From contig MWST01000035.1 of the NCBI GenBank assembly GCA_002050235.1, positions 67,693 through 131,692 of the forward strand: DNA of 64,000 nt, in the 5' to 3' direction. The DNA is from Polyangiaceae bacterium UTPRO1. GTDB lineage: Bacteria; Desulfobacterota; Binatia; UTPRO1. Positions 2,779 through 26,425 of this stretch are shown piece after piece. The notes beneath the pieces were generated by a model that worked only from the letters and a program-made list of their open reading frames with translations, did no database searches and was not told the DNA's origin. The first letter of the stretch is position 1, and each line of letters opens with the position of its first letter. The translations under genes were made by a program, and so were the position numbers.

Positions 2779-4446
2779 ATGCGGCGGCTGACGCCCTGGG
2801 TGCTCGGCGCCACGCTGCTGCTGCTCGTCCTGACGCCATTGCCGACGCCGGCGGCGGCGGCGACGACGATCGCCGCCGCCATCGGCGATCTGGTGCCGGC
2901 TCTCGGCGCCGATGCGGCGAGGGGCGACGGCGCCCTGGTGGCCCACCTCTACGCGACGCGCGGCTACGCTCCGCTCTGGCTCGACGACGGCCGTCCGAAC
3001 CACCGCGCCCACGACCTGATCGCCGCGCTCGGCGACGCGGCGGCGCACGGACTCGATGCCGCCGACTACGATGCCGCCGGGCTCGCCGACGCGGTCGCCA
3101 GGGCCGAAAGCGCACCGCCCCGCACCGCGGCCGAGGCGGCGCGCCTCGAGGTCGCGCTCGGCACCGCCGCGGTCCGCTTGCTGCACGACCTCCACCGCGG
3201 CCGCGTCGACCCGGCGGCGCTCGGCGTCGACTACGACCAGCAAGGAAAGCAGGCCCGGCTCATCGCCTTGAGCGAAGAGCTAGCGGGCGGCACCCCGGTG
3301 GCGACGGTCGTCGACGACGCCGTCCCGCCGCTGCGCGAGAACCTCCTGCTCGAACGCCAGCTCGCCCGCTACCGCGCCCTCGCCGCGGCCGCGGAGAAAG
3401 CGCCGCCGCAGGACGCCGCCGCATTGGCGCCGGTCGTCGTCGCCGGCACGCTCCGCCCCGGCGACCGCTTCGCCGCTGCCGCTCGACTCGCGCGCTGGCT
3501 CGCCGCGGTCGGCGACCTCGACGTCGAGGCCGTCGCCGCCGTCGCCGACCGCTACGAAGGCGTCCTCGTCGGCGCCGTGCAGCGCTTCCAATCGCGTCAC
3601 GGCCTCGCCGCCGACGGCGTGATCGGCCCGGCGACGGCGGCGGCGCTAGCAGTGCCGCTCGCCGTCCGCCGGCGCCAGATCGAGCTCGCGCTCGAGCGCC
3701 TGCGCTGGCTGCCGCTGCTGGCACGTGATCGTGCCGTGATCGCGAACGTCCCGGGCTTCGAGGCGCTGGCCTTCGACGCGATCGGCACGGCGCGCCTGCC
3801 GGCCCTGCGCATGCCGATCATCGCCGGGCGGGCCTTCCGCACCGAGACCCCCTTCTTCTCGCGGCCGATGACGCAAGTCGTGTTCGCTCCCTACTGGAAC
3901 GTCCCGACCAGCATCGTCCGCAAGGAGCAGCTGCCGAAGATCCGGCGCGATCCCGGCTATCTCGCGCGCGAGCAGATGCAGATCGTACGCGCCGGCCGCG
4001 TGCTCACACCCGGTCCGGCGGCGATCGCCGAGCTCGCGAACGGCGCCGCCGAGCTCCGCCAGCGGCCGGGCGCGAAGAACGCGCTCGGGCGCGTGAAGTT
4101 CCTCTTTCCGAACCCCTATGACGTCTACATGCACGACACGCCGGCCCGCGAGCTCTTCACGCGCGCCCGCCGCGACTTCAGCCATGGCTGCATCCGCCTC
4201 GGCGACGCCGCCGCCATGGCGCACTGGGTGCTCGGCGGCGAAGGCTTGGCACCGGAACGAATCGACGCACTGCTGGCGGCGACCGAACAGACGATCGTGC
4301 CGCTCCGCCGGCCGATCACGGTGGTCATCGCCTACGCCACCGCGGTCGCGCGGGCCGACGAGACGATCGCCTTCTACGACGATGTCTACGGCCACGACCT
4401 CGAGCTCGAGCAAGCGCTCGCGGCGCGCCGACGGCCTCGCTACTGA
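2779..4446 (+). CDS. L,D-transpeptidase with peptidoglycan-binding domain (YcbB-like)
   Basis: In-frame ATG at 2779 inside the artefactual 652..4446 ORF gives signal peptide MRRLTPWVLGATLLLLVLTPLPTPAAA. PG-binding motif QRFQSRHGLAADGVIGPATAAAL. YkuD catalytic motif HDTP...FSHGCIRL. Confidence 0.85.
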   Translation: MRRLTPWVLGATLLLLVLTPLPTPAAAATTIAAAIGDLVPALGADAARGDGALVAHLYATRGYAPLWLDDGRPNHRAHDLIAALGDAAAHGLDAADYDAAGLADAVARAESAPPRTAAEAARLEVALGTAAVRLLHDLHRGRVDPAALGVDYDQQGKQARLIALSEELAGGTPVATVVDDAVPPLRENLLLERQLARYRALAAAAEKAPPQDAAALAPVVVAGTLRPGDRFAAAARLARWLAAVGDLDVEAVAAVADRYEGVLVGAVQRFQSRHGLAADGVIGPATAAALAVPLAVRRRQIELALERLRWLPLLARDRAVIANVPGFEALAFDAIGTARLPALRMPIIAGRAFRTETPFFSRPMTQVVFAPYWNVPTSIVRKEQLPKIRRDPGYLAREQMQIVRAGRVLTPGPAAIAELANGAAELRQRPGAKNALGRVKFLFPNPYDVYMHDTPARELFTRARRDFSHGCIRLGDAAAMAHWVLGGEGLAPERIDALLAATEQTIVPLRRPITVVIAYATAVARADETIAFYDDVYGHDLELEQALAARRRPRY

Positions 4447-12279: not shown

Positions 12280-13155
12280 ATGTCGTCATCGATGTGGAAG
12301 TCCCTGGTAGCTATCCCCGTACTGGCGCTCGTCTGCGCCGCAGGTGCAGCCGCGGAGGTGTGCGGCGATGCCGACGGCAACGGCACCGTCACCGTCACCG
12401 ACGGCGTGCAGACGTTGCGCGCCGCCGCCAGCCTCAGCAGCACCTGCACCCCGGCGCGCTGCGACGTCGACGGCAGCGGCACGATCACGGTCAGCGACGG
12501 CGTGAACGTGCTGCGCAAAGCTGCCCATCTCCCCATCACCGAGGCGTGTCCGGGCACGAGCCTCGACGCCCAGGTCCAGGGGCTCCTGCAGGGCTCGCTC
12601 CCGCTCTTCGGCGCTCTCGTCAAGGGCTTCGGCGGCGGCGCTGCGGCGCGGGCCGCGGAAACGCTAGAGTGCGAGAACCCCGGCGGCACGTTCACCGTCG
12701 AAGACAGCGGCAGGATCTCGTTCCACCACTGCGTGATGGGCGGCGGACTCGAGTACGGCGGCTTCTCCATGCCGACGGCGAACGGCCTCGACTTCGACCT
12801 CACCTTCACCGAGGTAGCTACGGGCGAGTACACGTCGATGAGCGGCAGCTTCACGGAGACGGCGCACGAGAACGGCTCCGTCCTGAACGGCCACTTCGAC
12901 TTCTCCTCCTCCGCGAGCGGCCGCTTCCGCATCATCTTCGACGCGCTCGTCGTCTCCGATGATCCCAACGCCAGTTTCATCAGCGGCAGCCTCGAGTTCC
13001 AGGTCGAGGATCCGGCGTGGAGCGGCGTCACCAGTATCCGCCTCTCCTTCGACGGCAGCGAATGGGCGATGGTCGACGTACTTCTCGGCGACGACCAGTT
13101 CGTCGCCTTCCGATACAATCTCGTGACCGGCGAGCTGGAGTCCTTCTCGCACTAG
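12280..13155 (+). CDS. secreted protein: N-terminal dockerin-like module plus unknown ~220-aa domain
   Basis: GGAGG lies 5 nt upstream of ATG 12280. Signal peptide MSSSMWKSLVAIPVLALVCAAGAAA. Module at nt 12358-12552: VCGDADGNGTVTVTDGVQTLRAAA...CDVDGSGTITVSDGVNVLRKAA. Paralog of the next gene. Confidence 0.75.
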   Translation: MSSSMWKSLVAIPVLALVCAAGAAAEVCGDADGNGTVTVTDGVQTLRAAASLSSTCTPARCDVDGSGTITVSDGVNVLRKAAHLPITEACPGTSLDAQVQGLLQGSLPLFGALVKGFGGGAAARAAETLECENPGGTFTVEDSGRISFHHCVMGGGLEYGGFSMPTANGLDFDLTFTEVATGEYTSMSGSFTETAHENGSVLNGHFDFSSSASGRFRIIFDALVVSDDPNASFISGSLEFQVEDPAWSGVTSIRLSFDGSEWAMVDVLLGDDQFVAFRYNLVTGELESFSH

Positions 13156-13170
13156 CGTCCGGACACGATC

Positions 13171-14052
13171 ATGGCGTTGCAGGCCATGCGCAACTTGGCC
13201 CTCCAGGCGCTGCTCGCCGCCGCCCTCGCCGGGTCGGCGGCGGGCGGCGCCGCCGTCTGCGGCGACGCGACCGGCGACGGCGCGGTCACGGTGACCGACG
13301 GCGTGCAGGCGCTCCGTGCTGCAGCCGGCCTCTCGACCACGTGCGACGACGGCTGCGACTTCGACGGCAACGGCACCATCACGGTGAGCGACGGTGTCAA
13401 CATCCTGCGCAAAGCAGCCGGAATCTCCGTCGTCGACGCCTGCGACTTCACGGGTGCGGAGGCCAACGGCGTCGTGAGCCCGGCGCTCCCCGTCTTCGGG
13501 GCGCTCACCAAGGTCCCCGGCGTCAGCTCGCAGGCGTCGCTAGCAGCGGGCACGTGCGACAACGACGGCACGATCACGACCGTCGGCGCCGGCAGCTCGA
13601 GCATCATCACGTTCTCCGATTGCCGACTCGGCAACGCCATCGTCGACGGCACCATCGGCCGCGTCGTCCTCGGCTCCGGTCTGGCGCTCGGGCTCGATGC
13701 CCTCAAGCTGCGGCGCGTGCGCGGCGGAGAAACGCTGACCTTGAACGGCACGCTCGGCGTCGGCGACATGCAGGGCGCCGCCAAGCTGATCGACGGCACC
13801 CTGGAGGCCGACTCGCCGCAGCGCGGCGCCTTCACGATCGCCTTCGAGCATATCGTCCTCGCCGGCGACGGCGCGGCCCGCCAGGGCTCGCTGATCTTCG
13901 ACCTGCCGGCGACGGCGGCGGGATCGATCGCGCGCATCCAGATCGACTTCGCGAACGCCGAGCGCCCGCCCGCGATCGTCACCCTGCGCACCCAACGGAT
14001 CGTCCGGTTCCTGCTCGACCGCAACACCGGCCTGCTGCATCGAGCCGCCTGA
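13171..14052 (+). CDS. secreted protein: N-terminal dockerin-like module plus unknown ~220-aa domain (paralog)
   Basis: Signal peptide MALQAMRNLALQALLAAALAGSAAGGAA. Module at nt 13255-13447: VCGDATGDGAVTVTDGVQALRAAA...CDFDGNGTITVSDGVNILRKAA. Shares LP(L/V)FGAL and a similar C-terminal end with the 12280 gene. Confidence 0.75.
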   Translation: MALQAMRNLALQALLAAALAGSAAGGAAVCGDATGDGAVTVTDGVQALRAAAGLSTTCDDGCDFDGNGTITVSDGVNILRKAAGISVVDACDFTGAEANGVVSPALPVFGALTKVPGVSSQASLAAGTCDNDGTITTVGAGSSSIITFSDCRLGNAIVDGTIGRVVLGSGLALGLDALKLRRVRGGETLTLNGTLGVGDMQGAAKLIDGTLEADSPQRGAFTIAFEHIVLAGDGAARQGSLIFDLPATAAGSIARIQIDFANAERPPAIVTLRTQRIVRFLLDRNTGLLHRAA

Positions 14053-16748
14053 AGCGCGGGGTCGCAGCGCTGGCGGCGCTGCTGACGCTGACGGCGGTCG
14101 GCAGCGCCAACGCCGCGCTCTGCGGCGACGCCGACGGCGACGGCGCCGTCACGGTGACCGACGCCGTCCGCATCCTGCGCGCGGCGGTCGGTCTGGGCGC
14201 CTGCGTAGCCGCGTGCGATCTCGACGCCGACGGCAGCCTCACCGTCACCGACGGCGTACTGGCGCTGCGCCGCGCCGCCGCCTTGCCGATCGCCGACGCC
14301 TGCCGCTCGGGAACGATCGCCGGACGGCTGCTCGTGCCCCCGGCGAGCGCTGCCGCGCACGTCGAACACGAGCCCAACGACGGCCCCGGCACGGCCGCGG
14401 TCGCGGGCCGGATCGCACCCGGCGACGCGCAGCGGCTCGTCGGCGCGATAGCGGCGGACGACCCGTACGATGCCTGGAGGTTCGTCGCCGCCGGCGCGCT
14501 CGAAATCGAGTTGACGCTCGCCTTTCCCGCCGCCCCCGGCACCGATCTCGACCTGCTGATCGACGCCGGACCGCGCGGGAGCGCGACCTGCGAAAGCGCC
14601 TTCCCCGGCCGCGAGCGCTGCCGCGTCGCGATCACTAGCGCCGAGCCGGCCGCTTTCGACCTCGTCGTCACCGCCGCGGCCGGCTCCCGGCCGTCGCCCT
14701 ACGTACTCGACGTCAGCGCTTCCTCCTCCGGCATCGCGGCGCCCGGCGTGACCGCGCTCCGCGGCGCCGGGGCACCGATCGACATCGAGCCCGAGGTCTA
14801 CCGCGGCGACACGGCGCCGATCGTGATCGGCGAGATCGTCGCGCGTCTGGAGCCGGAAGCGACCGCAGGAAGATCGCCTGCGACTGCGCGCGCGCTCGCG
14901 GCCGTCGCTGACATCGGTCTGCGCGAGCCGATGGCCACGGTGCTCGCGGCCCCGGACGGCACGGTGGTGATGATGCTGCCGACGCTGCGTGCGAGCACGG
15001 CGGCGCGCGGACGCGGTGCCGCTGCCGGACTCGCGGCCAAGCGCGCGCGCGCGGCGGCGCGGGCGCGCACCCGCGCCGCCGCTGCCGCGCTCGCCGCCGC
15101 TCCCGACGTCCTCTTCGCCGCGCCCAACCGCCTGGCGCGTGCGGCGCGGATCCCGCGCGACCCGCTCTATCCACGCCAGTGGCACTACGCCGCGATCGGA
15201 TTGCCGAGCGCCTGGGACGTTACCATCGGCAGCCCTGCCACCGTGGTAGCGGTCGTCGACACCGGCATCCGCAGCGACCACCCGGACCTCGCCGGCCGCC
15301 TCGTTCCCGGCTTCGACTTCATCAGCAGCGCCCAGCGCGCCAACGACGGCGACGGCATCGATCCCGATCCCTTCGACCCTGGCGACCAGCCCGACCGCGA
15401 CGACGGCGGCACGTTCCACGGCACGCACGTCGCCGGCACCATCGCCGCGGCCAGCAACGATACGCTCGGCGTCGCCGGGGTCACCTGGCGGACCTCGATC
15501 ATGCCGTTGCGCGCGCTCGGTATCGGCGGCGGCACGCTCTTCGACATCGCCCAGGCAATCCGGTTCGCGGCCGGTCTCCCCAACGTATCGGGCGTGCTGC
15601 CGGCGATCCCGGCCCGGATCCTCAACCTGAGCCTCACGACGAGCAACGACGACCCGGTCCTGCGCAGCGCCATCGACGCAGCGACGGCCGCGGGGCTGCT
15701 GGTCGTCGCGGCGGCCGGGAACACCGGCGGGCGGGCTACGCTGGTGCCCGCGTCGTATCCGAACGTCATGAGCGTCGCCGCCACCGACCGCCTCGGAGCA
15801 CCAGCGCGCTACTCGACCGCCGGACCCGGCGTCGATCTCGCCGCGCCCGGCGGCGACACGCACCGCGACCGCGACGCCGACGGCTTCGTCGACGGCGTGC
15901 TCAGCACGCGCCTGCCCGGCGTCGAGGACTACGGGCTCCTGCAAGGCACGTCGATGGCGAGTGCGCACGTAAGCGGCGTCGCCGCGCTCCTGCTCGGCGT
16001 CCCCGGCGGCGCCTCGGCGTCGCGCCTGCGCGAGGTCCTGCTCGCAACGGCCGATGATCGGGGCGCTCCGGGACGCGACGATCGCTATGGGGCCGGCATC
16101 GTCGACGCGGCGCGCGCCGTCCGCCTGCTGGGCGGCATCGCGCCCCCGGCCGAGCCCACCCTCACCATTGCCGCGTCGACGGTCCGTATCGCTGCCGACG
16201 AAAGCGTCCTGCAGGTGCCGTTTGCGAATGCGGGCGGCGGCGACCTGGCCTTCGCTCCACCCGTCGTGGCGACGGACGACGGCGAACGCTGGCTCGCCGC
16301 CGCCATCACCGGCGGAGCGCTGCGCCTCGAGGTCGACCGTGACGGCCTCGTCGGAGGATCCCATACCGGACGCGTCGATCTCGCCTCGACCGGCGGCGCC
16401 GCGGCGCTCACGGTGGTCGCCGAGGTCGCAGCGGCGCCGCCCGCCGACATCGGCCCGGTGACGATCCTCCTGCGCGACGCCGCGACCGGGGTGATCCTCG
16501 CCACGACCACGGCCGTCGCCGCCGGCTACTACCGATATCGCTTCACCGGCGTCGCACCGGGACGATACGAGATCATCGCCACCACCGATCGCGACGGCGA
16601 CGGCGCTATTTGCGACGTCGGCGAGGCCTGCGGCGCCTATCCGGACCGCAACGCCCCCGATCCGGTCACGGTCGCTGCCGGCGACATCGTCGGCGCCCGC
16701 GACTTCGCGCTGCAACTAGTCGTCAGTACGGCAGAAAACGCGCCCTGA
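14049..16748 (+). CDS. secreted S8 subtilisin-family serine protease with N-terminal dockerin-like module and PPC-like domain
   Basis: Catalytic triad blocks VVAVVDTGI, HGTHVAGTIAA and GTSMASAHVSGVAALL. Dockerin-like module at nt 14118-14310. The start is uncertain. The signal peptide (L)KRGVAALAALLTLTAVGSANA begins at a CTG (14049), with no in-frame ATG/GTG/TTG nearby. The track ORF 13017..16748 is a shadow extension. Confidence 0.8.
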   Translation: MKRGVAALAALLTLTAVGSANAALCGDADGDGAVTVTDAVRILRAAVGLGACVAACDLDADGSLTVTDGVLALRRAAALPIADACRSGTIAGRLLVPPASAAAHVEHEPNDGPGTAAVAGRIAPGDAQRLVGAIAADDPYDAWRFVAAGALEIELTLAFPAAPGTDLDLLIDAGPRGSATCESAFPGRERCRVAITSAEPAAFDLVVTAAAGSRPSPYVLDVSASSSGIAAPGVTALRGAGAPIDIEPEVYRGDTAPIVIGEIVARLEPEATAGRSPATARALAAVADIGLREPMATVLAAPDGTVVMMLPTLRASTAARGRGAAAGLAAKRARAAARARTRAAAAALAAAPDVLFAAPNRLARAARIPRDPLYPRQWHYAAIGLPSAWDVTIGSPATVVAVVDTGIRSDHPDLAGRLVPGFDFISSAQRANDGDGIDPDPFDPGDQPDRDDGGTFHGTHVAGTIAAASNDTLGVAGVTWRTSIMPLRALGIGGGTLFDIAQAIRFAAGLPNVSGVLPAIPARILNLSLTTSNDDPVLRSAIDAATAAGLLVVAAAGNTGGRATLVPASYPNVMSVAATDRLGAPARYSTAGPGVDLAAPGGDTHRDRDADGFVDGVLSTRLPGVEDYGLLQGTSMASAHVSGVAALLLGVPGGASASRLREVLLATADDRGAPGRDDRYGAGIVDAARAVRLLGGIAPPAEPTLTIAASTVRIAADESVLQVPFANAGGGDLAFAPPVVATDDGERWLAAAITGGALRLEVDRDGLVGGSHTGRVDLASTGGAAALTVVAEVAAAPPADIGPVTILLRDAATGVILATTTAVAAGYYRYRFTGVAPGRYEIIATTDRDGDGAICDVGEACGAYPDRNAPDPVTVAAGDIVGARDFALQLVVSTAENAP

Positions 16749-16773
16749 CAGGGGGCACCCGCGCCGCGGGCAG

Positions 16774-16801
16774 CTTGACCATGCTTCGAGCCTTCTGTTA
16801 A
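16774..16801 (+). promoter_or_regulatory. candidate sigma70-type promoter for the lipoprotein gene
   Basis: TTGACC (16774-16779), a 16-nt spacer, then GTTAAT (16796-16801), about 90 nt upstream of ATG 16892. A local low-GC patch in a high-GC intergenic region. Confidence 0.3.
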
Positions 16802-16891
16802 TGCGACGGCCTTACGCGCTCGGGATGCGAGCGCACGAGGGTCGCAGGAGCCGCGCTCACGGCCACTGTACACGGAGGAGGAACGATCACG

Positions 16892-17458
16892 ATGAAATAC
16901 ACGCTCAAGTCTGGACTCACGATCGGGATGATGGTGGCGGCGCTCGCCTTGACCGGCGGCTGCGGCGACAACGACAACAACCACAACGACAACGGCCATG
17001 CGCAGCCGACGCGCACGGCGACGCCGAAGCCGGGCGTGACACCGACGGCGGTGGCACCGACGGTAACGCCGGCGACCGAGCCGACGTCGACGCCGAGCGG
17101 CACCACCGAGCACACGGTCACTTTCGACTTCACCGCTGCGCACGGCATCCAGGCCTTCCAGGTGCGCGTCGCGTATCCGAAGGAGAAGGGCAGCTTCGCC
17201 GGCGCGGCCGATCAGGTCGAGTGCACTGTGGACGGCGGCGGCGGCATCTTCACCAAGAATCACAACGACGCGGCCGGAACCCTGACGTTGAGCGTAGCGA
17301 ACACGTCGGACCTCACCTTCCCGATCAATATCCAGTGCACCTTCGAGGCGACGGCCGCGATCTCGGCGGACGACCTCGATGTGACGGTGCAGGAAGTGAC
17401 GCAGAACAACGCTCCCGGCAACGTCGCCGACCTGAGCGTCGGCAAGTCGGTCTCGTAG
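16892..17458 (+). CDS. lipoprotein with Thr/Pro-rich linker and C-terminal beta-rich (possibly cohesin-like) domain
   Basis: GGAGGAGG upstream of the ATG. Lipobox LALTGGC. Linker PTRTATPKPGVTPTAVAPTVTPATEPTSTPSGTT. The ~115-aa domain contains GIQAFQVRVAYP. The cohesin assignment is inference only. Confidence 0.7.
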   Translation: MKYTLKSGLTIGMMVAALALTGGCGDNDNNHNDNGHAQPTRTATPKPGVTPTAVAPTVTPATEPTSTPSGTTEHTVTFDFTAAHGIQAFQVRVAYPKEKGSFAGAADQVECTVDGGGGIFTKNHNDAAGTLTLSVANTSDLTFPINIQCTFEATAAISADDLDVTVQEVTQNNAPGNVADLSVGKSVS

Positions 17459-19120: not shown

Positions 19121-19867
19121 ATGAAGATCAGGGGGGCAGCGCGCACCGATCGGGGTCGGGTGCGGCGCGAGAATCAGGACCACTTCGGACTCGCCGCGGA
19201 CCGCGGCCTCGGCTTCGTCGCCGACGGCATGGGAGGACACGCCGGCGGCAGGCGGGCCAGCGAAGAAGCAGTGCGGGTGATCACGGAATCACTCGCCGCG
19301 GACACACCCGGCGGCGCGGACGGCAGTGGACGCCTCCGCCAGGCCATCGAGGAAGCCAACCGCCGCATCTGGGCGCTGCCGCAGTCGGAGCCGGCGCTCC
19401 ACGGCCTCGGGACCACGATAGCCGCCATGCTGATCGAAGGCGGCGTCGGCCACGTCGCCCACGTCGGTGATTCGCGCGTCTACCGCATCCGCAACGGCGC
19501 CATCGAAGCGCTGACGCGCGACCACTCCTATCTGAACGACCTCGCCGCCCGCGGCGTCGAGCTCACCGACCCCGCCGCGCGCGCGCGCTACGAGAGCGTG
19601 CTCACGCGGGCGATCGGCGTCGCCCCGACCGTCGACGTCGACGTGTCCTCTCGTCCGGTCACCCCCGGCGATACCTTCCTTCTCTGTTCGGACGGCGTCT
19701 ACCGCGTCCTCGCTCCCGAGCGGCTCGCGGAGATCGTCGCCGAGGGCGGCGACGATCTCGACGCCATCTGTGCCACCGTCATCGCGCGCACGAACGACGG
19801 CGGCGGTCCGGACAACTGCACCGTCGTCGTGTTGCGCGTCGATCCGGACGGCGCAGGCTCCTCGTGA
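19121..19867 (+). CDS. PP2C-family Ser/Thr protein phosphatase
   Basis: Motifs RTDRGRVRRENQD, ADGMGGHAGG, LCSDGV and GGPDNCTVVV. Confidence 0.85.
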   Translation: MKIRGAARTDRGRVRRENQDHFGLAADRGLGFVADGMGGHAGGRRASEEAVRVITESLAADTPGGADGSGRLRQAIEEANRRIWALPQSEPALHGLGTTIAAMLIEGGVGHVAHVGDSRVYRIRNGAIEALTRDHSYLNDLAARGVELTDPAARARYESVLTRAIGVAPTVDVDVSSRPVTPGDTFLLCSDGVYRVLAPERLAEIVAEGGDDLDAICATVIARTNDGGGPDNCTVVVLRVDPDGAGSS

Positions 19868-22800
19868 AGATCTCCGCCCGTTACGAGGTTCTAGGCCTCC
19901 TCGGCCAAGGCGGGATGGGCGTGGTGTACCACGTCCGCGACACGACCCGCGGCCGCGAGAACGCCCTCAAGACTCTCGCTCCCGGCCGCTCCGAGGACAT
20001 CATCGAGCGCTTTCTTACGGAAGCACAGGTGATGTTCCGCCTCGAGCACGACAACATCGTGCGCGTCTACGATTTCGGCAAGGACGGCGAAACCTACTTC
20101 CTCACCATGGAGCTGATCCGCGGCAAGAACCTGCGGCAGCTCCTGAATGCCCGTCAGAACAAGGGCTTTCCGCTCGCGGAAGTGATCCGCATGGGTATCC
20201 AGGCGGCTGACGCCCTCAACTACGCGCACAGCCAGAAACCCGAGGCCGTCGTCCACCGCGACATCAAGCCCGTCAACATCATGGTCGAGGAAGAGACGGG
20301 GCGCGTCGTCGTCGCCGACTTCGGCATCGCCAAGCTCATGGCCGACGCCGGCGGCGGCGAGACCCAGATCGGCAACGCTGCGACGCATACGGTCTTCGCC
20401 GGCACCGTGCCCTACTCGGCGCCCGAGCAGTTCCTCGCCGGCGGCGGCGGGCGTCGCCTCGACGCGCGCGTCGACATCTACGCCCTCGGCATCGTCCTCT
20501 ACGAGATCTACACCGGCCGGCACTTCTTCGCCGGCCTCTCCGCCGAAGAGGTCGAGCAGCATCATCGTTCCATCGAAACGGGCGAGTGCCCGGTCAAGCG
20601 GCCACACGCCTGCGACCACAAGATCACGACCCTGCCCGAAGCGCCGCAGGCTTTCATCGAGGTCATCGAGAGGGCGATCGCCCGCGACCGTCACGAGCGG
20701 TACCGGACCGCGGCGGAGATGCTCGCCGACCTCCGGGCCTGCGCGGCCGTGGAGTCGGTTGAGGCCGTCGCCGCCGCGCGCCGCACCGCCGAGGCCGCAG
20801 GCGCGCTCGAGGCGGCGACCACGGATTTCCGGCGCGGCGACGAGCTCGAGCGCGAGGCCCAGGCGGCACGCGAGCGCGGCGACGACACGCGCGCCGGCGA
20901 GCTCTATCGCGATGCTCTCCAGGCATACGGCGCAGCCGCCGCGCAGGCGAACGAGCGTCGCAGCCAACGCGCCGCGCAGCAGGCGAAGACGGCCATGCAG
21001 ATCGTCGCCCGGGAAGCCACCGAGCGCGATCTCACAGCGCTCGCCCCGGAGGCGATGAAGCACGCCGCCCAGCTCGTCGCCACGGCCGAGGCGAGCGAGG
21101 TCCAAGGACAGTACGAGCAGGCAACGGCGCAGTACCGCCAAGCCGAGGAGGCGTTTCGCGCCGCCCTCGTCACGGCACGTCAAGCCAGCGCGCGCAAGGC
21201 GATCGAGGACGAGATGCCGGCGCTCCGCGCCGCCCGGGAGGCTGCCGAGCAGGCCGATGCCGCGACGCTCGCCGCCGATGTGTTCGCCGCGGCCGTCCGC
21301 GAGCAGATCCGCCTCGAGGAGGCGCTCGCCGCCGGCGAGCTGACCCGCGTCCGCGAGCTCTTGCCGCAGGTCCGCGACCGGTTCGCCGCCGCCGGCGAGG
21401 AGGCCGGCCGGCGCCTCCACCAGAGCGTCGACGAGGCCCGTGCCGCCATGCGCGCCGCTGCCGCCGAGGCGACCGCGGCAGACGCTCCCCGGCACGCGAA
21501 GGCGGAGAGCATCGAAGCCGAGGCCCTAGCGGGCGCCGCGGAGAAACTGATCGAGCGCGGGCAGCTAGAGCTCGCCGCAGCCCAGCTTGGACGCGCCGCC
21601 GACGCCTACCGCGCCGCCGCATCGGCAGCGGCCCGAGCCGGCGAGCGGGAGGTGCTCGAGAAAGAGCTGCCCGCGCTCCGAGCGGCGCGCGCGGCTGCCG
21701 AGAGCGCCGGCGCAGCGACGCTCGCGGCCGACACCTTCGCAGCGGCGGCACGTGAGCAGGCCGATTTCGAAGCCGCCCTCGCCGCCGGCGAGCTGACCCG
21801 CGTCCGCACGCTCCTGCCGCGGGTCGGCGATGGCTTCGCCGCCGCCAGGCAAGCAGCGATCCTCGCCCAGGCAAGCCGCGCCGCGCTCGCGGCCCGCTCC
21901 GCCATGGCGGCCGCACGCGACGCCGCTATCGCCGCCGGCGCCGAGCAGCTCGTCCCCGACGCGCTCGCCCGGGTCCGCGCGCGCGAGCGCGAGGCCGCCG
22001 CTGCGGAAGAGGACCGGCAATGGGACCGTGCCGAGCAGCTCTACCGTGAGGTCGCGACGGCGTTCGACGAGGTCCGCGCTGCGGCGCTGCGGCGTGCCGA
22101 GGAGGAGCGTCTGGCCGCGGCGCTGGTCGAAGCCCGGAGCTCGATGGAAGCGGCACGGACACGCGCCAGGAACGCGGGAGCCGAGCGCTACGCAGCGGCG
22201 CTAGTAGCCGAGGCGGATGCGCTCGCACAACAGGCCGGCGGAGCCGCGAACGACGCCGCCGGCATGGCGTCAGCGGCCGCCGACTACGCGCGCGCACGCG
22301 AGCGCTACGACGCCGCGATCACCGAGGCCGCGCGTGTCGCTCGCCGCCACGAGCTGCGGGAGACCCTGGCCACCGTCGCCGCGGCGAAGCAGCAAGCGGT
22401 CGATGCCGGCGCTGACGAGACCGCCGAGTTCATAGCCGCGGCCGACGAGCTCGCCGCGGCCGAACGAGCGCTCGCTGCCGACGAGCTGAGCCTCGTCGTG
22501 AGCTCCGCGGCGGCGGCCCGTGAGCGCTTCGCCGCCGCCGAGAACGCCGCTGCGCGCGCCAAGATCGAGGCCGCCGCCGACACGGCGCTCGCCGACGCCG
22601 CGGCGGCCGGAGCGGAAGCGCGGGAGGCAGGCGCCGAAACGCTCGCCGCCGCGGCTTGGGCCGTCGCCGTCGAACAGCAGCAGCGGGCGCTCGCACGCCG
22701 CCGGGACGGCGACTGCAACGCCGTCCCGGGGATCGCCGCGGAAGCCGAGCGGGCGTTCGCAGCCGCGCTCGAGGAGGCCGTGCACGCGGCCTACGAGAGC

Positions 22801-24894
22801 GCGGTCGCAGCGCGGGCGGCGGCCGGACTGGACGGACCCGACGACCAGGCCGCCAACGCTGCGGAGCAGGCGTTCACGGCCGGCGAGCGACGGCAACGGG
22901 AAGGAAAACGCGTCGCCGCGGCGATCGCGTTCCGCAAGGCCGCCGAGAGCTACCGGGCGGTGACCGCGGCGCGAGCCGGTGCCCGCGCCGCCCGCGACGC
23001 CGCGCGCGCTGCGCACCTGGAGGCCGAGGCCGCCGGTGCCGCCGAGCTCGCGGCCGCCGAGCTGGCGCAGGCGAACGAGACGCTGGCGGTCGCCGAGCGC
23101 GCTCTCGAGAGCGGAGACTACGACGGCAGCGAGCGCAGCTTCGCGACGGCGCGCGACGCCTTCGGCCGGGCGCGCGACGCCGCGGTGCGGGCGGCTGCCG
23201 AGCGCGATGCGCAGGCGGCGCGGGCTCGCGTCGAGGACCTGCGGGCGACGCGCGCTCCGGCGGCTGCCGGCTTCTTCGCGCGCCGCAAGCTTGCGAAGGC
23301 GGATGCGGCACACGCGCGCGGTACCGCCGCGGCAACGCGCGGAAATTTTGCGGCCGCCGCCGCTGCCTACAACGAAGCGGCCGAGGTCTTGGCGGCGCTG
23401 CCTGCGGGGACGATACCGCCTCCGGCCGCCCCCACGGCCGAACGGGCGGCGCCGACCGCCGCTGCCGCCGAGACGATGTCGGCCGTCGGTGTGGCGCCCG
23501 GCAGCGAAGCGACCACGCTGGCACCTGACCAGGCGCTCGCAGACGCCACCGTCGTTAGCGATGGCGCCGCGGTTGCCGGCTCTGCCGACGCCACCGTCGT
23601 TGCCGCGGCTGCCGGCGCCGCGACCGTGGTCGCGCGCCAGCAGCCGCCGGCGCCGACCGGACGAGGACTGCCGGTGGCGTGGATCGGCATCGGCGCCGCG
23701 GGCGTCGCGCTGCTCGCCGGCGTCTGGCTGTTGCGCGGCGGCTCCACGGGCACGATGCCACAGCCGGCGCCGCCGCAGGTGGCGGTGCCGGCCGACGCGG
23801 CAGCGTCCAAGGAAGCTGGCGCGGTAGCACCGCCGGCACCGCCGCAGCAGGTGGTCGAGGACCGTCGGCCGGAGCCGGCGGCGCCGACTGCTCCGCCCCA
23901 GCAGATCGCCAAGGTCGAAGAGCCGCCCCCACCCGAGGTTCCGGCGGCCGCCCCCGTCATCAGCGGCTTCGAGCCCCGCGGCAAGACGGTACAGGCCGCG
24001 CCCGGTAGGAGCACGCGCTTCAAGGTGACCGCAAAAGACGACGGCAGCGCTCCCCTGCGCTACGCCTGGTTCGTCGACGACAAAGCCGCAGGCGACGGCA
24101 CGCCGACCCTCGAGCTCACCCCCACCGACGACGACGAAGGAACGACCCGCGAAGTGCGCGCCGAAGTGGCGGTCGGAACCGGTCCCGTGGCGCGCACTGC
24201 GTGGACCGTCACCGTGCCGCGCGCGCCCGTCGCCATCACGCACCAGGTTCCGGCGCCGGCGGAGATCATCGCCGCTCTCGGCGACGCCACCGATTTCAGC
24301 GTCGAGGCCCGCGCCGGACGGGCGCCGGCGAGCGCACTCTCCTATGTCTGGACCGTCGACAAGCGTCCGGTCCACGGCGCCGACGGACCGCGCTTCACGT
24401 ACCGTTCCGAGCACGCCGGCAGCACCGATGTCGAAGTGCGCGTCGAGGCACCGGAGCGCGCCGCCGCGGTCCGGCATTGGACCGTCCGGGCGCACCCGCG
24501 GGAGCCCGTCGCCGTGCCGACGCAGGTCGCGGCGCTGCCGCCGCGCCTCGCGCCGACGCCGCTCGCGCCGCACGCCGGCAGCGATCCGCGGCGCGAGCTC
24601 GAGAGCTGGATCGCCTCCTATCGCGACGCGTATCAGCGCAAGAACGTCGACGAGCTCCTGGCGCTCGGTGTCGTCAAGCCCGAGAACCGCAGCAAGCTCG
24701 CGGCCGCGTTGAACGATCTGGTCGATCTCGAGGTGCGCATCGCCAGGAGCGCCATCGACGTGCATAGCCCCGACAGCGCGGTGGTCACGCTGACGCGCGA
24801 GGACAGCTTCAATGCCGGCGGCCGGCGCCAGACGCAGTCGATCGACATCAGGAAGAACCTGCACAAGGTGAACGGCTCGTGGGTCGCGCAATGA
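19864..24894 (+). CDS. giant Ser/Thr protein kinase (Hanks type) with Ala-rich helical repeat array, one TM helix and an extracytoplasmic Ig-like/NTF2-like region
   Basis: GTG start overlapping the phosphatase stop (GTGA). Kinase motifs GQGGMGVVY, HRDIKPVN, DFGIAK and SAPEQ. TM helix LPVAWIGIGAAGVALLAGVWLL at nt 23668-23736. 1676 aa. Confidence 0.85.
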   Translation: MKISARYEVLGLLGQGGMGVVYHVRDTTRGRENALKTLAPGRSEDIIERFLTEAQVMFRLEHDNIVRVYDFGKDGETYFLTMELIRGKNLRQLLNARQNKGFPLAEVIRMGIQAADALNYAHSQKPEAVVHRDIKPVNIMVEEETGRVVVADFGIAKLMADAGGGETQIGNAATHTVFAGTVPYSAPEQFLAGGGGRRLDARVDIYALGIVLYEIYTGRHFFAGLSAEEVEQHHRSIETGECPVKRPHACDHKITTLPEAPQAFIEVIERAIARDRHERYRTAAEMLADLRACAAVESVEAVAAARRTAEAAGALEAATTDFRRGDELEREAQAARERGDDTRAGELYRDALQAYGAAAAQANERRSQRAAQQAKTAMQIVAREATERDLTALAPEAMKHAAQLVATAEASEVQGQYEQATAQYRQAEEAFRAALVTARQASARKAIEDEMPALRAAREAAEQADAATLAADVFAAAVREQIRLEEALAAGELTRVRELLPQVRDRFAAAGEEAGRRLHQSVDEARAAMRAAAAEATAADAPRHAKAESIEAEALAGAAEKLIERGQLELAAAQLGRAADAYRAAASAAARAGEREVLEKELPALRAARAAAESAGAATLAADTFAAAAREQADFEAALAAGELTRVRTLLPRVGDGFAAARQAAILAQASRAALAARSAMAAARDAAIAAGAEQLVPDALARVRAREREAAAAEEDRQWDRAEQLYREVATAFDEVRAAALRRAEEERLAAALVEARSSMEAARTRARNAGAERYAAALVAEADALAQQAGGAANDAAGMASAAADYARARERYDAAITEAARVARRHELRETLATVAAAKQQAVDAGADETAEFIAAADELAAAERALAADELSLVVSSAAAARERFAAAENAAARAKIEAAADTALADAAAAGAEAREAGAETLAAAAWAVAVEQQQRALARRRDGDCNAVPGIAAEAERAFAAALEEAVHAAYESAVAARAAAGLDGPDDQAANAAEQAFTAGERRQREGKRVAAAIAFRKAAESYRAVTAARAGARAARDAARAAHLEAEAAGAAELAAAELAQANETLAVAERALESGDYDGSERSFATARDAFGRARDAAVRAAAERDAQAARARVEDLRATRAPAAAGFFARRKLAKADAAHARGTAAATRGNFAAAAAAYNEAAEVLAALPAGTIPPPAAPTAERAAPTAAAAETMSAVGVAPGSEATTLAPDQALADATVVSDGAAVAGSADATVVAAAAGAATVVARQQPPAPTGRGLPVAWIGIGAAGVALLAGVWLLRGGSTGTMPQPAPPQVAVPADAAASKEAGAVAPPAPPQQVVEDRRPEPAAPTAPPQQIAKVEEPPPPEVPAAAPVISGFEPRGKTVQAAPGRSTRFKVTAKDDGSAPLRYAWFVDDKAAGDGTPTLELTPTDDDEGTTREVRAEVAVGTGPVARTAWTVTVPRAPVAITHQVPAPAEIIAALGDATDFSVEARAGRAPASALSYVWTVDKRPVHGADGPRFTYRSEHAGSTDVEVRVEAPERAAAVRHWTVRAHPREPVAVPTQVAALPPRLAPTPLAPHAGSDPRRELESWIASYRDAYQRKNVDELLALGVVKPENRSKLAAALNDLVDLEVRIARSAIDVHSPDSAVVTLTREDSFNAGGRRQTQSIDIRKNLHKVNGSWVAQ
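21181..22086 (+). repeat. 453-bp internal duplication within the kinase gene
   Basis: The identical 24-mer gccggcgagctgacccgcgtccgc occurs at 21331 and 21784 (offset 453 nt = 151 aa). The flanking protein segments ...MPALRAAREAAEQADAATLAADVFAAA... and ...LPALRAARAAAESAGAATLAADTFAAA... align throughout. Unit boundaries are approximate. Confidence 0.6.
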
Positions 24895-25511: not shown

Positions 25512-26425
25512 CGACGCTCCTGAGCTGCCTCACCGCCGCACTGCTCGCTGGTCTCGCGCTCGCGGCACCGGCCGTCGGTCAGTCGTGCCCCTGGACGCCG
25601 GACGACGCCTACGCGTTCATCAATGCCGGGAGCCGGGAGTGCCCGGCGGATCCGGAGGTCTTCTGGCACAACGCCACCGTCGAGTTCGATTGCAGCTTCT
25701 TCGCTGCGGCCGGGACGGCCATCTACTGCGGCAGCGACGGACACGCCTGTGTCGAGCTCTGCCAGCAGGCGGCCGGCACCTGGAACACCGACCTACCGGG
25801 ACGCTTCACCTTCGTCGACGCCGAGAACACGGTGACTTTCTGCGACCCGAACGACGGCAAAGTCTCGATCGGCGGCACGTCGATGACGCTCTGCGACGGC
25901 AAGTCCCTGTACGCGAGCAACGTGCTCGCCGTAACGCTCAGCATCTTCTATACTGGAGGCTCGCAGTCGGGGCACCTGATCGACGCCAACATCACCGTCA
26001 ATCAAGCCTTCCTATTTTCGCCGGCCAGCTTCCGGGCGACGCTCGCCCACGAGCTCGGACACGTCCTCGGGCTCTCCCATCCCGACGAGTGCGGCGACGA
26101 CTACAACGTGCTCATGCGCTCCGCGTCCCTGTTTGCGCCGCAGGGCCTTTGTTTCGTCAGCGACCCGACGGCCGCCGACATCCGCGGCGCCGAACGCATA
26201 TATCCCCTGGTCGGTCCGACGCCGGGGCTCTGCGGTGACGCCGATCTGAGCGGCGCCGTCACTGTCAGCGATGGCGTCCAGGTGCTGCGTGCCGCAGCCG
26301 GGCTCTCCAGCGCCTGCACGCCGCAACGCTGCGACGTCGACGGCAGCGGCGAGATCACGGTCACCGACGGCGTGCACGTGCTGCGCACCGCCGCCGGCCT
26401 GCCGTCGATCTCGGCCTGTCCCTGA
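25508..26425 (+). CDS. secreted M10 (matrixin-like) zinc metalloprotease with C-terminal dockerin-like module
   Basis: GTG 25508 overlaps the upstream stop (GTGA). Signal peptide TTLLSCLTAALLAGLALAAPAVG. Zinc motif HELGHVLGLSH (nt 26048-26080) followed by NVLM (candidate Met-turn). Dockerin-like module at nt 26228-26422. Confidence 0.8.
   Translation: MTTLLSCLTAALLAGLALAAPAVGQSCPWTPDDAYAFINAGSRECPADPEVFWHNATVEFDCSFFAAAGTAIYCGSDGHACVELCQQAAGTWNTDLPGRFTFVDAENTVTFCDPNDGKVSIGGTSMTLCDGKSLYASNVLAVTLSIFYTGGSQSGHLIDANITVNQAFLFSPASFRATLAHELGHVLGLSHPDECGDDYNVLMRSASLFAPQGLCFVSDPTAADIRGAERIYPLVGPTPGLCGDADLSGAVTVSDGVQVLRAAAGLSSACTPQRCDVDGSGEITVTDGVHVLRTAAGLPSISACP

Follow-up and report, generated by a model that had tools for sequence, protein, structure and literature searches.

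Dockerin-like modules are common in non-cellulolytic genomes, often without a findable cohesin, and their role there is unclear. The 64,000-nucleotide (nt) stretch of contig MWST01000035.1 analyzed here (the window), from an uncultured Binatia bacterium of soil and groundwater, raises this question in a compact form: four exported proteins carry a small dockerin-like module, and the last of the three clustered genes that encode such proteins is followed by the gene of a small lipoprotein. Is the lipoprotein the receptor of the modules? The original prediction, made from the DNA alone, had proposed a lipid-anchored docking platform. In our analysis the modules proved to be of the dockerin family, the lipoprotein was predicted to have a cohesin-like fold, and the adjacency of the two was found to survive genome rearrangement, but the cohesin signal expected at the sequence level did not appear. 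From sequence comparisons and structural models, we give an even chance to a non-cellulosomal docking system in which a lipid-anchored receptor with a single cohesin-like domain would tether dockerin-tagged proteins in the Binatia envelope.

The module is ~65 amino acids (aa) long and comprises two segments, each formed by a D-x-D-x-(S/N/D)-G…D loop and a helix, with four bracketing cysteines. As had been proposed, three consecutive plus-strand genes, for protein A, protein B and an S8 subtilase, encode one copy each, and a fourth copy ends a metalloprotease, here called the metzincin. Both a motif scan and a profile search agreed on this set (Table 1; the profile E-values were computed over 7326 six-frame open reading frames, ORFs). 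In the six-frame motif scan of all 64 kb, the loop-helix motif was confined to the four modules. Seven segments were caught by the scan; the eighth, in the first half of the B module, was recognized in the alignment, the third residue of its loop being T rather than D/N. In A, B and the S8 subtilase, the module is N-terminal and lies directly behind a signal peptide, as the original prediction had stated, and these signal peptides are of the Sec type. The N-terminal modules begin 1–2 residues past a signal-peptidase-I type site. The metzincin has its module at the C-terminus. The residue that precedes the first module Cys is V, I, T, L or E and never G, A or S, so this Cys is not part of a lipobox.

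The four bracketing Cys residues, which had been called invariant, are invariant or nearly so in the alignment and were found in 129 of the 157 modules of 140 diverse carrier proteins. The module is N-terminal in 83/140 of these carriers and C-terminal in 34/140, and their cargo includes β-propellers, Lcl_C, M23, M64, HtaA and LamG domains. Judged by this distribution across protein sequences, the module behaves as a mobile terminal tag.

In both tandem segments, a helix follows a 12-residue Ca2+ loop in which positions 1, 3 and 5 are D/N and position 12 is D. This is the plan of the type I dockerins of Clostridium thermocellum (PF00404; Xyn10B, 1OHZ/2CCL), with which the module shares the duplicated ~22-residue segment with its 12-residue loop (Asp/Asn at 1, 3 and 5; Asp at 12) and helix, the ~32 residues between the loops, a predicted three-helix pattern, the internal twofold symmetry and the terminal location, as well as Thr/Ser at position 11, a basic residue at position 18 and the best sequence matches in the PDB. 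In a comparison of 128 different modules of the 4-Cys type, attached to unrelated cargo, the conservation in the two halves is 100% for D1, 97–99% for D/N3, 91–96% for S/N/D5 and 100% for D12, and it extends to non-ligand positions, with L17 and R18 present in 96–99% and T/S11 in 88–90%. Position 15 is Q or N and almost invariant across unrelated cargo. The near-invariance of L17, R18 and T/S11 over such diverse cargo argues for one shared binding partner and is compatible with a dual binding mode. In established dockerin structures, positions 10, 11, 17 and 18 are the sites at which C. thermocellum type I dockerins contact cohesin.

In line with the original prediction that the modules are dockerin-like, the Pfam Dockerin_1 model (PF00404) recognized the modules of A (15.3 bits), the S8 subtilase (17.5 bits) and the metzincin (13.9 bits), but all of these scores are below the gathering threshold of 22.9 bits, and the B module had no Dockerin_1 match, with EF-hand_6 as its only Pfam hit. 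A weak Dockerin_1 match, always spanning profile positions 2–48, was present in 58 of the 74 members of the A/B family (E ≤ 1, best 2.4e-4). When PDB sequences were searched with one module, the S8 N-terminus and a 20-sequence profile, dockerins were at or near the top (4uyp_B with E = 0.0019, then 1ohz_B, 2mte_A, 1daq_A and 2ccl_B), and EF-hand pairs ranked behind. The decisive result came from an exhaustive search of 1.84 billion representative proteins with the module profile, which returned 5104 matches at E ≤ 1e-3, of which 436 reached E ≤ 1e-10. The profile recovered P0197 (9.1e-34), P0204 (1.4e-27) and P0332 (4.5e-21), which are low-G+C proteins built of 7–10 canonical Cys-less dockerin repeats. 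Because this search reaches canonical dockerins, we treat the module as belonging to the dockerin superfamily. Pfam Dockerin_1 also matched in 27 of the best 140 carriers (best 9.5e-86). The module loop closes with Asp instead of the Glu typical of EF-hands and has no helix before it, as in dockerins. In the AlphaFold2 (AF2) model of protein A, which we read for secondary structure only in this region, the module consists of a helix, a short helix and a helix (residues 39–49, 58–61 and 71–81; predicted local distance difference test score, pLDDT, of 72–82).

By these sequence criteria, the module is a member of the dockerin superfamily that constitutes a distinct 4-Cys subtype. It differs from type I dockerins in the four conserved Cys around the segments, in its mostly N-terminal position, in the sub-threshold Pfam scores of the window copies, in its cargo of proteases, β-propellers and unknown barrels rather than glycoside hydrolases, and in its host, an uncultured lineage of high G+C content that is presumably diderm. 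P0203, a 682-aa protein from a different lineage of lower G+C content, has three module copies that show a partial form of the Cys pattern (…PSxC-x3-4-CD…) and lie within longer Cys-rich repeats, so the Cys-linked linker extends beyond Binatia.

The lipoprotein has a signal peptide that ends in a lipobox (LALTGG↓CGDNDN), which fits the pattern [LVI][ASTVI][GAS]C and whose Cys is nearly invariant across 72 homologues. Lipobox LTGG↓C is followed by a conserved CGDNDNSGNGNDNGG stretch, a ~45-residue Thr/Pro linker and a 117-aa domain in which Y, G-x-F, two Cys, P and G are invariant; the lipoprotein nature and the Thr/Pro linker noted originally recur in the family alignment. Initially, 74 clusters made up the family; a profile search with the domain and its paralogue at locus L015 as the query enlarged it to only 105, and its members are all lipoproteins of ~180–200 aa, with a few variants of ~320 aa. 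The D/N-rich stretch (nt 16961–17010, residues 24–40), located straight after the lipidated Cys, is nearly invariant in the family. Such conservation exceeds the needs of a spacer, and the stretch may be a metal-binding or sorting signal. The longer variants of 320–328 aa (P0192, encoded at L007:10001-10987, and P0188–P0190) lack a lipobox and contain a tandemly duplicated Cys-containing N-terminal domain ahead of the cohesin-like domain. Twelve weak matches of the family to DHBP_synthase (best E 0.0074) look spurious.

AF2 predicted residues 72–188 of the lipoprotein as a nine-strand β-sandwich with pLDDT >93. When the model was compared with the PDB by Foldseek, ranks 1–7 and 9–11 were occupied by cohesins with a probability of 1.00 (type II cohesins of Acetivibrio cellulolyticus ScaA and of C. 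thermocellum; the top structures include 3fnk, 3kcp_B, 5g5d, 4fl4_B and 2ccl_A). Further down followed type I 2ccl_A, C. acetobutylicum CohA2, cohesins of Ruminococcus bromii and R. flavefaciens, and C. perfringens cohesin-like modules, so that roughly one in two of the top 50 matches was a cohesin of type I or II or a C. perfringens module. Besides these, AP2 mu2 recurred, aligned with a root-mean-square deviation of 10–15 Å. Since cohesins are a tiny share of the β-sandwiches in the PDB, their dominance among the fold matches is meaningful. The modeled domain probably has a cohesin-like fold and is a candidate member of the cohesin family.

Gene linkage provides a further line of evidence. 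Nine Binatia-type contigs contain a ~190-aa lipoprotein gene of this family, in three arrangements, and in 9/9 a module gene is nearby, at ~1.5 kb or less (in the third arrangement, ~1.4 kb downstream and ~135 nt upstream). In the first arrangement, found in three genomes, the genes for A, an optional 527–546-aa module-bearing paralogue, B, the S8 subtilase and the lipoprotein are co-directional. Locus L005 is a stronger test of linkage, because its lipoprotein is only 41% identical and the hemB and S8 genes are gone; module genes nevertheless lie on both sides, with an A-type module protein encoded before the lipoprotein and a convergent metzincin orthologue with a C-terminal module directly after it. 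In the third arrangement (L006 and L023), two genes with N-terminal modules are upstream and one with a C-terminal module is downstream of the lipoprotein. A hidden Markov model (HMM) search of 772 kb of Binatia DNA found, besides the orthologues, a sole distant paralogue of the lipoprotein domain (L015:1187-2056). Its lipobox is FVSC, its N-terminal part is rich in Cys, its linker is of the Thr/Pro/Ser type, and its domain shows the same Y…G-F…C…C signature. Just downstream lies a gene (L015:~2966-4285) whose product contains three internal repeats and ends in a 4-Cys module; between the two genes there may be an ORF on the minus strand (L015:2138-2713).

A census identified 142 module-encoding stretches that were confirmed by genome scan, and the 77 loci retained are all in nine Binatia-type metagenome-assembled genomes (MAGs). 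At least 12 dispersed module loci lie on the 6.99-Mb MFD09212 contig, and three further MAGs have at least 11, 12 and 16, respectively; these counts are lower bounds obtained with two narrow peptide patterns and the best 80 stretches. The contigs examined contain one orthologous lipoprotein per genome, plus one divergent paralogue. A tentative extension of the favored reading to the whole class, which we hold with less confidence than the docking system itself, is that in Binatia one sequence-cryptic minimal lipoprotein cohesin would serve as common receptor to dozens of dockerin-tagged proteins with disulfide clasps in each genome, among them proteases, β-propellers and the barrel proteins of a new family.

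Several observations weigh against the lipoprotein as the receptor. Pfam Cohesin (PF00963), the model by which the original prediction was to be checked, found nothing at E ≤ 10 in the window lipoprotein or in any of the family members searched (72/72 without a match). The lipoprotein had no match to any other Pfam family or to NCBIfam, the family HMM gave 0 matches to PDB sequences at E ≤ 10, and no bridge to known cohesins emerged within the 105-cluster family. Alignment of the domain with three CipA cohesins by hhalign (sequences verified against 1aoh, 2ccl and 3kcp) gave a probability of 0.1, with profiles so shallow (effective number of sequences, Neff, of 2.5 and 1.4) that the value is uninformative, and a metagenome scan for a deeper cohesin profile yielded 3 loci only. 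Cohesins lead the structural ranks and a nine-strand sandwich was predicted, but the Foldseek E-values are 7.5e-3 or worse, with none ≤ 1e-3, and unrelated small viral β-sandwiches reach a similar value (3.6e-3) in a search of viral models, which returned only generic small sandwiches and linker-driven 'collagen-like' matches. The template modeling (TM) scores were 0.34–0.49 (0.34–0.42 on the query) and are lowered by the disordered linker, which takes up 70 of the 188 query residues (~40% of the model). In the closest genomes, the hemB, M48, PP2C and kinase neighborhood is also syntenic, and the adjacency there partly reflects shared ancestry and is weak evidence. No module gene lies within 10 kb of the 328-aa variant at L007. 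Module genes are mostly scattered, away from any cohesin-like gene, which fits a single common receptor and, equally well, a partner encoded elsewhere. The missing sequence signal, the weak and non-exclusive fold matches, the synteny, the dispersed loci and the L007 variant speak for an explanation in which the modules are true dockerin-family domains and the lipoprotein is an unrelated small β-sandwich protein kept in a conserved operon for another reason, e.g. as a protease substrate, an inhibitor or a structural protein of the envelope; the partner of the modules would then be a protein with its gene elsewhere or a ligand that is not a protein, e.g. a polysaccharide of the envelope. We regard this explanation as less likely than the docking system, though it is the strongest competitor: the adjacency outlasts rearrangement in the more distant genomes and is independently repeated at the L015 paralogue, and cohesins head the fold matches although they are a tiny share of PDB β-sandwiches.

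Farther from the evidence is the explanation that the module has no dedicated protein partner and is a disulfide-locked Ca domain resembling an EF-hand pair, with a role in stability, folding or sensing, or else a secretion or sorting tag. On single modules, the scores of EF-hand families match those of Dockerin_1, calmodulin and 3aka appear among the PDB sequence matches, and the module is always at the extreme terminus, like sorting tags. The non-ligand residues L17, R18, T/S11 and Q/N15 are, however, conserved beyond what calcium binding or stability needs, the loop-final Asp and the missing preceding helix are dockerin-like, and the matches of the profile to canonical dockerins are much stronger than those to EF-hand proteins, which makes this explanation improbable. 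A compositional artefact of a 70% G+C genome, in which Gly/Asp/Ala/Val-rich repeats occur in ORFs that are not genes, might be suspected from the many long spurious ORFs that the high G+C content creates in the window. It is refuted by the hundreds of homologues with conserved length and architecture and by the confident AF2 models; in addition, the motif occurs in these four ORFs only out of all six frames, and third-position G+C is 0.87–0.93 in the frames of A, B and the lipoprotein.

If the favored docking system is correct, the module would fold around two Ca2+ ions after Sec export and cleavage of the signal peptide. In the oxidizing envelope, two disulfides would probably lock it, with Cys1–Cys4 clasping the termini and Cys2–Cys3 closing the inter-segment loop. 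The two near-identical helices (T/S11 and Leu-Arg 17–18) would bind the cohesin-like domain of the lipoprotein, a task that the twofold symmetry of the module would permit either one to perform (dual binding). Tagged cargo, including the S8 protease, the metzincin and A/B, would in this way be tethered to a membrane on a flexible Thr/Pro stalk. The predicted Sec signal peptides and lipobox place the proteins outside the cytoplasm and fit the periplasm or the outer surface of a diderm cell alike; the cell-surface location named in the original prediction is an assumption.

The closest parallel in the cellulosome field is provided by the OlpA/OlpC-type proteins of C. thermocellum, which are cell-surface anchors with a single cohesin that are attached through S-layer homology (SLH) repeats; the cohesin structure 3ul4, a PDB sequence match in the CipA check, is listed as a 'cellulosome-anchoring protein'. 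The predicted Binatia system would share with them one cohesin-type domain on an envelope anchor, individual dockerin clients and the lack of a multi-cohesin scaffoldin. In contrast to the OlpA/OlpC type, the Binatia protein is anchored through a lipid at its N-terminus (lipobox) and has a Thr/Pro stalk, in place of SLH repeats or a sortase signal, and its domain is shorter (~117 versus ~140–170 aa), has two invariant Cys and shows no detectable PF00963 similarity.

Non-cellulosomal cohesin and dockerin modules are established (Peer et al. 2009, as summarized in PMC9012536), among others in Archaeoglobus fulgidus and in anaerobic methanotrophic (ANME) archaea (PMC9012536). Such archaeal and non-cellulolytic modules resemble the Binatia system in having no cellulolytic role or large scaffoldins, cargo that includes binding proteins and proteases, and a function deduced mainly from genomes (PMC9012536). 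They differ in that they are found by the Pfam cohesin and dockerin models, whereas the putative Binatia cohesin is invisible to sequence models and the Binatia dockerin is of a 4-Cys subtype. In the R. flavefaciens ScaA dockerin, an 'intramolecular clasp' of contacts between the N- and C-terminal ends stabilizes the module (PMC3821032). The Cys1…Cys4 pair of the Binatia module, a pairing deduced from sequence, could be a covalent version of this clasp. Among the papers searched, none links Binatia with dockerins. Relative to the known theme, the sequences and models point to four new elements: a mainly N-terminal 4-Cys dockerin, a lipid-anchored miniature and sequence-cryptic cohesin candidate, a Binatia host, and a cargo of proteases and unknown barrels.

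For orphan dockerins, the locus offers a candidate partner that is visible only through its predicted fold and conserved neighborhood, and, in the 117-aa domain and the four 65-aa modules, a concrete pair that can be tested at low cost. If they bind, a lipid-anchored single-cohesin receptor would be defined in a presumably diderm, uncultured lineage, together with a disulfide-stabilized dockerin subtype that might furnish a robust affinity pair for oxidizing compartments. The module would also become a localization label for several thousand 'hypothetical' proteins, as 5104 representative clusters match its profile. Should the class-wide reading hold, orphan dockerins of non-cellulolytic genomes may generally have cohesin-like partners that are missed by sequence searches. 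If the pair does not bind, three new groups would still have been defined: a dockerin subfamily, the family of the A/B barrel and that of the small lipoprotein.

Table 1. Modules and genes of the docking locus and its surroundings, in window coordinates
Feature	Position (nt)	Strand	Profile E-value	Description
Module in protein A	12358–12552	+	4.8e-37	
Module in protein B	13255–13446	+	2.6e-30	
Module in S8 subtilase	14118–14306	+	1.1e-24	
Module in metzincin	26228–26422	+	2.3e-32	
Protein A, 291 aa	12280–13155	+		Signal peptide, N-terminal 4-Cys module, long helix, 160-aa β-meander
Protein B, 293 aa	13171–14052	+		Paralogue of A, equal architecture
S8 subtilase, ~899 aa	14049–16748	+		Signal peptide, N-terminal module, EPND-motif segment, S8 domain, C-terminal β-sandwich-like region
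Lipoprotein, 188 aa	16892–17458	+		Lipobox, D/N-rich stretch, Thr/Pro linker, β-sandwich domain at nt 17105–17455
Exported protein, 497 aa	17544–19037	-		Conserved neighbor of the lipoprotein
PP2C phosphatase and Ser/Thr kinase (1676 aa)	19121–24894	+		
Exported protein, 210 aa	24879–25511	+		Stop overlaps the metzincin start
Metzincin-type metalloprotease, 305 aa	25508–26425	+		C-terminal 4-Cys dockerin-like module
Transaldolase-phosphoglucose isomerase fusion, 984 aa	26542–29496	+		Lys/Arg/Pro-rich C-terminal tail

Proteins A and B are paralogues with 37% identity and have no Pfam or NCBIfam family, in agreement with the original statement that their paralogous domains could not be assigned. 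At least 354 homologues of protein A were found at E ≤ 1e-3 among 8000 candidates scored, and those with a name are hypothetical proteins from Binatia-type MAGs. The AF2 model of A has a mean pLDDT of 84, with values >90 for the cargo domain, which is composed of a helix (residues 95–118) and a 13-strand meander. A Foldseek search with this model gave nothing significant; the weak matches were DUF1089 PA1994 (6e-3), ORP lipid-binding domains (ORD), VtrC and PyrI4. Three relatives of A/B have weak Pfam LppM matches. As a lead only, the modeled A/B domain may be a barrel that binds hydrophobic ligands. A third module-bearing paralogue of 527–546 aa, encoded between A and B at L001:4620-6260 and L002:4590-6173, combines an A/B-type barrel (weak Pfam LppM match, E 0.0028) and a Pro/Thr linker with an additional C-terminal domain rich in Cys.

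The S8 assignment of the subtilase was upheld by a full-length Pfam Peptidase_S8 (PF00082) domain at residues 397–683 (3.9e-53, 181 bits). There is no ATG, GTG or TTG near or upstream of the signal peptide of this gene (window 14040–14120), and the sole plausible start is a CTG at 14049 that overlaps the TGA stop of B (cCTGA). This overlap suggests translational coupling or a non-canonical start of the S8 gene. The metalloprotease, originally assigned to family M10, can be called a metzincin by its zinc motif HELGHVLGLSH (pattern HExxHxxGxxH), with no support for a closer assignment to M10: all Pfam peptidase matches (M10/M12/M43) are sub-threshold, with M10 at 0.0019 (18.5 bits, cut-off 24) and Reprolysin_5 at 0.0014.

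The window has a G+C content of ~70%, and the high-G+C host lineage is presumably diderm. The lipoprotein shows 100% identity to a protein of the MAG 'Polyangiaceae bacterium UTPRO1'. Homologues of the lipoprotein and of protein A have labels such as Candidatus Binatia and 'Deltaproteobacteria bacterium'. Around the locus, the genes encode in turn an M48/TPR protease and HemB (ALAD; both minus), A, B, the S8 subtilase and the lipoprotein (all plus), the 497-aa exported protein (minus), the PP2C phosphatase, the 1676-aa Ser/Thr kinase, the 210-aa exported protein, the metzincin and the transaldolase/phosphoglucose isomerase fusion. As had been stated for the window, no glycoside hydrolase or carbohydrate-binding module was found, here in a scan of 6 proteins near the locus and 26 additional ORFs.

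The 497-aa exported protein had zero matches in Pfam, NCBIfam and PDB sequences. It adjoins the lipoprotein in L001–L004, is 431–497 aa long across genomes and ends in …GFEKTF. From this C-terminal end it is possibly an outer-membrane β-barrel, and it could be relevant to the export of the lipoprotein or of the cargo. The 210-aa protein had no Pfam or NCBIfam match. The order of kinase, small ORF and C-terminal-module protein recurs in L005 (218 aa) and L006 (164 aa). This protein is a conserved partner of the metzincin, its place in the docking system being uncertain, and it may be a cognate inhibitor or chaperone of the protease. Even where the locus is rearranged, in L005 and L006, the genes for the PP2C phosphatase and the kinase still accompany the lipoprotein/module cluster; a very long region of the kinase is rich in Ala, Glu and Arg, and its C-terminal part is extracytoplasmic. 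The remaining window contains housekeeping genes (GPAT, PurU-like, G6PD, 6PGD, H+-PPase, ABC-2 transporter, acyl-CoA dehydrogenase and others), among which G6PD and 6PGD follow the transaldolase/phosphoglucose isomerase fusion and form a pentose-phosphate cluster with it.

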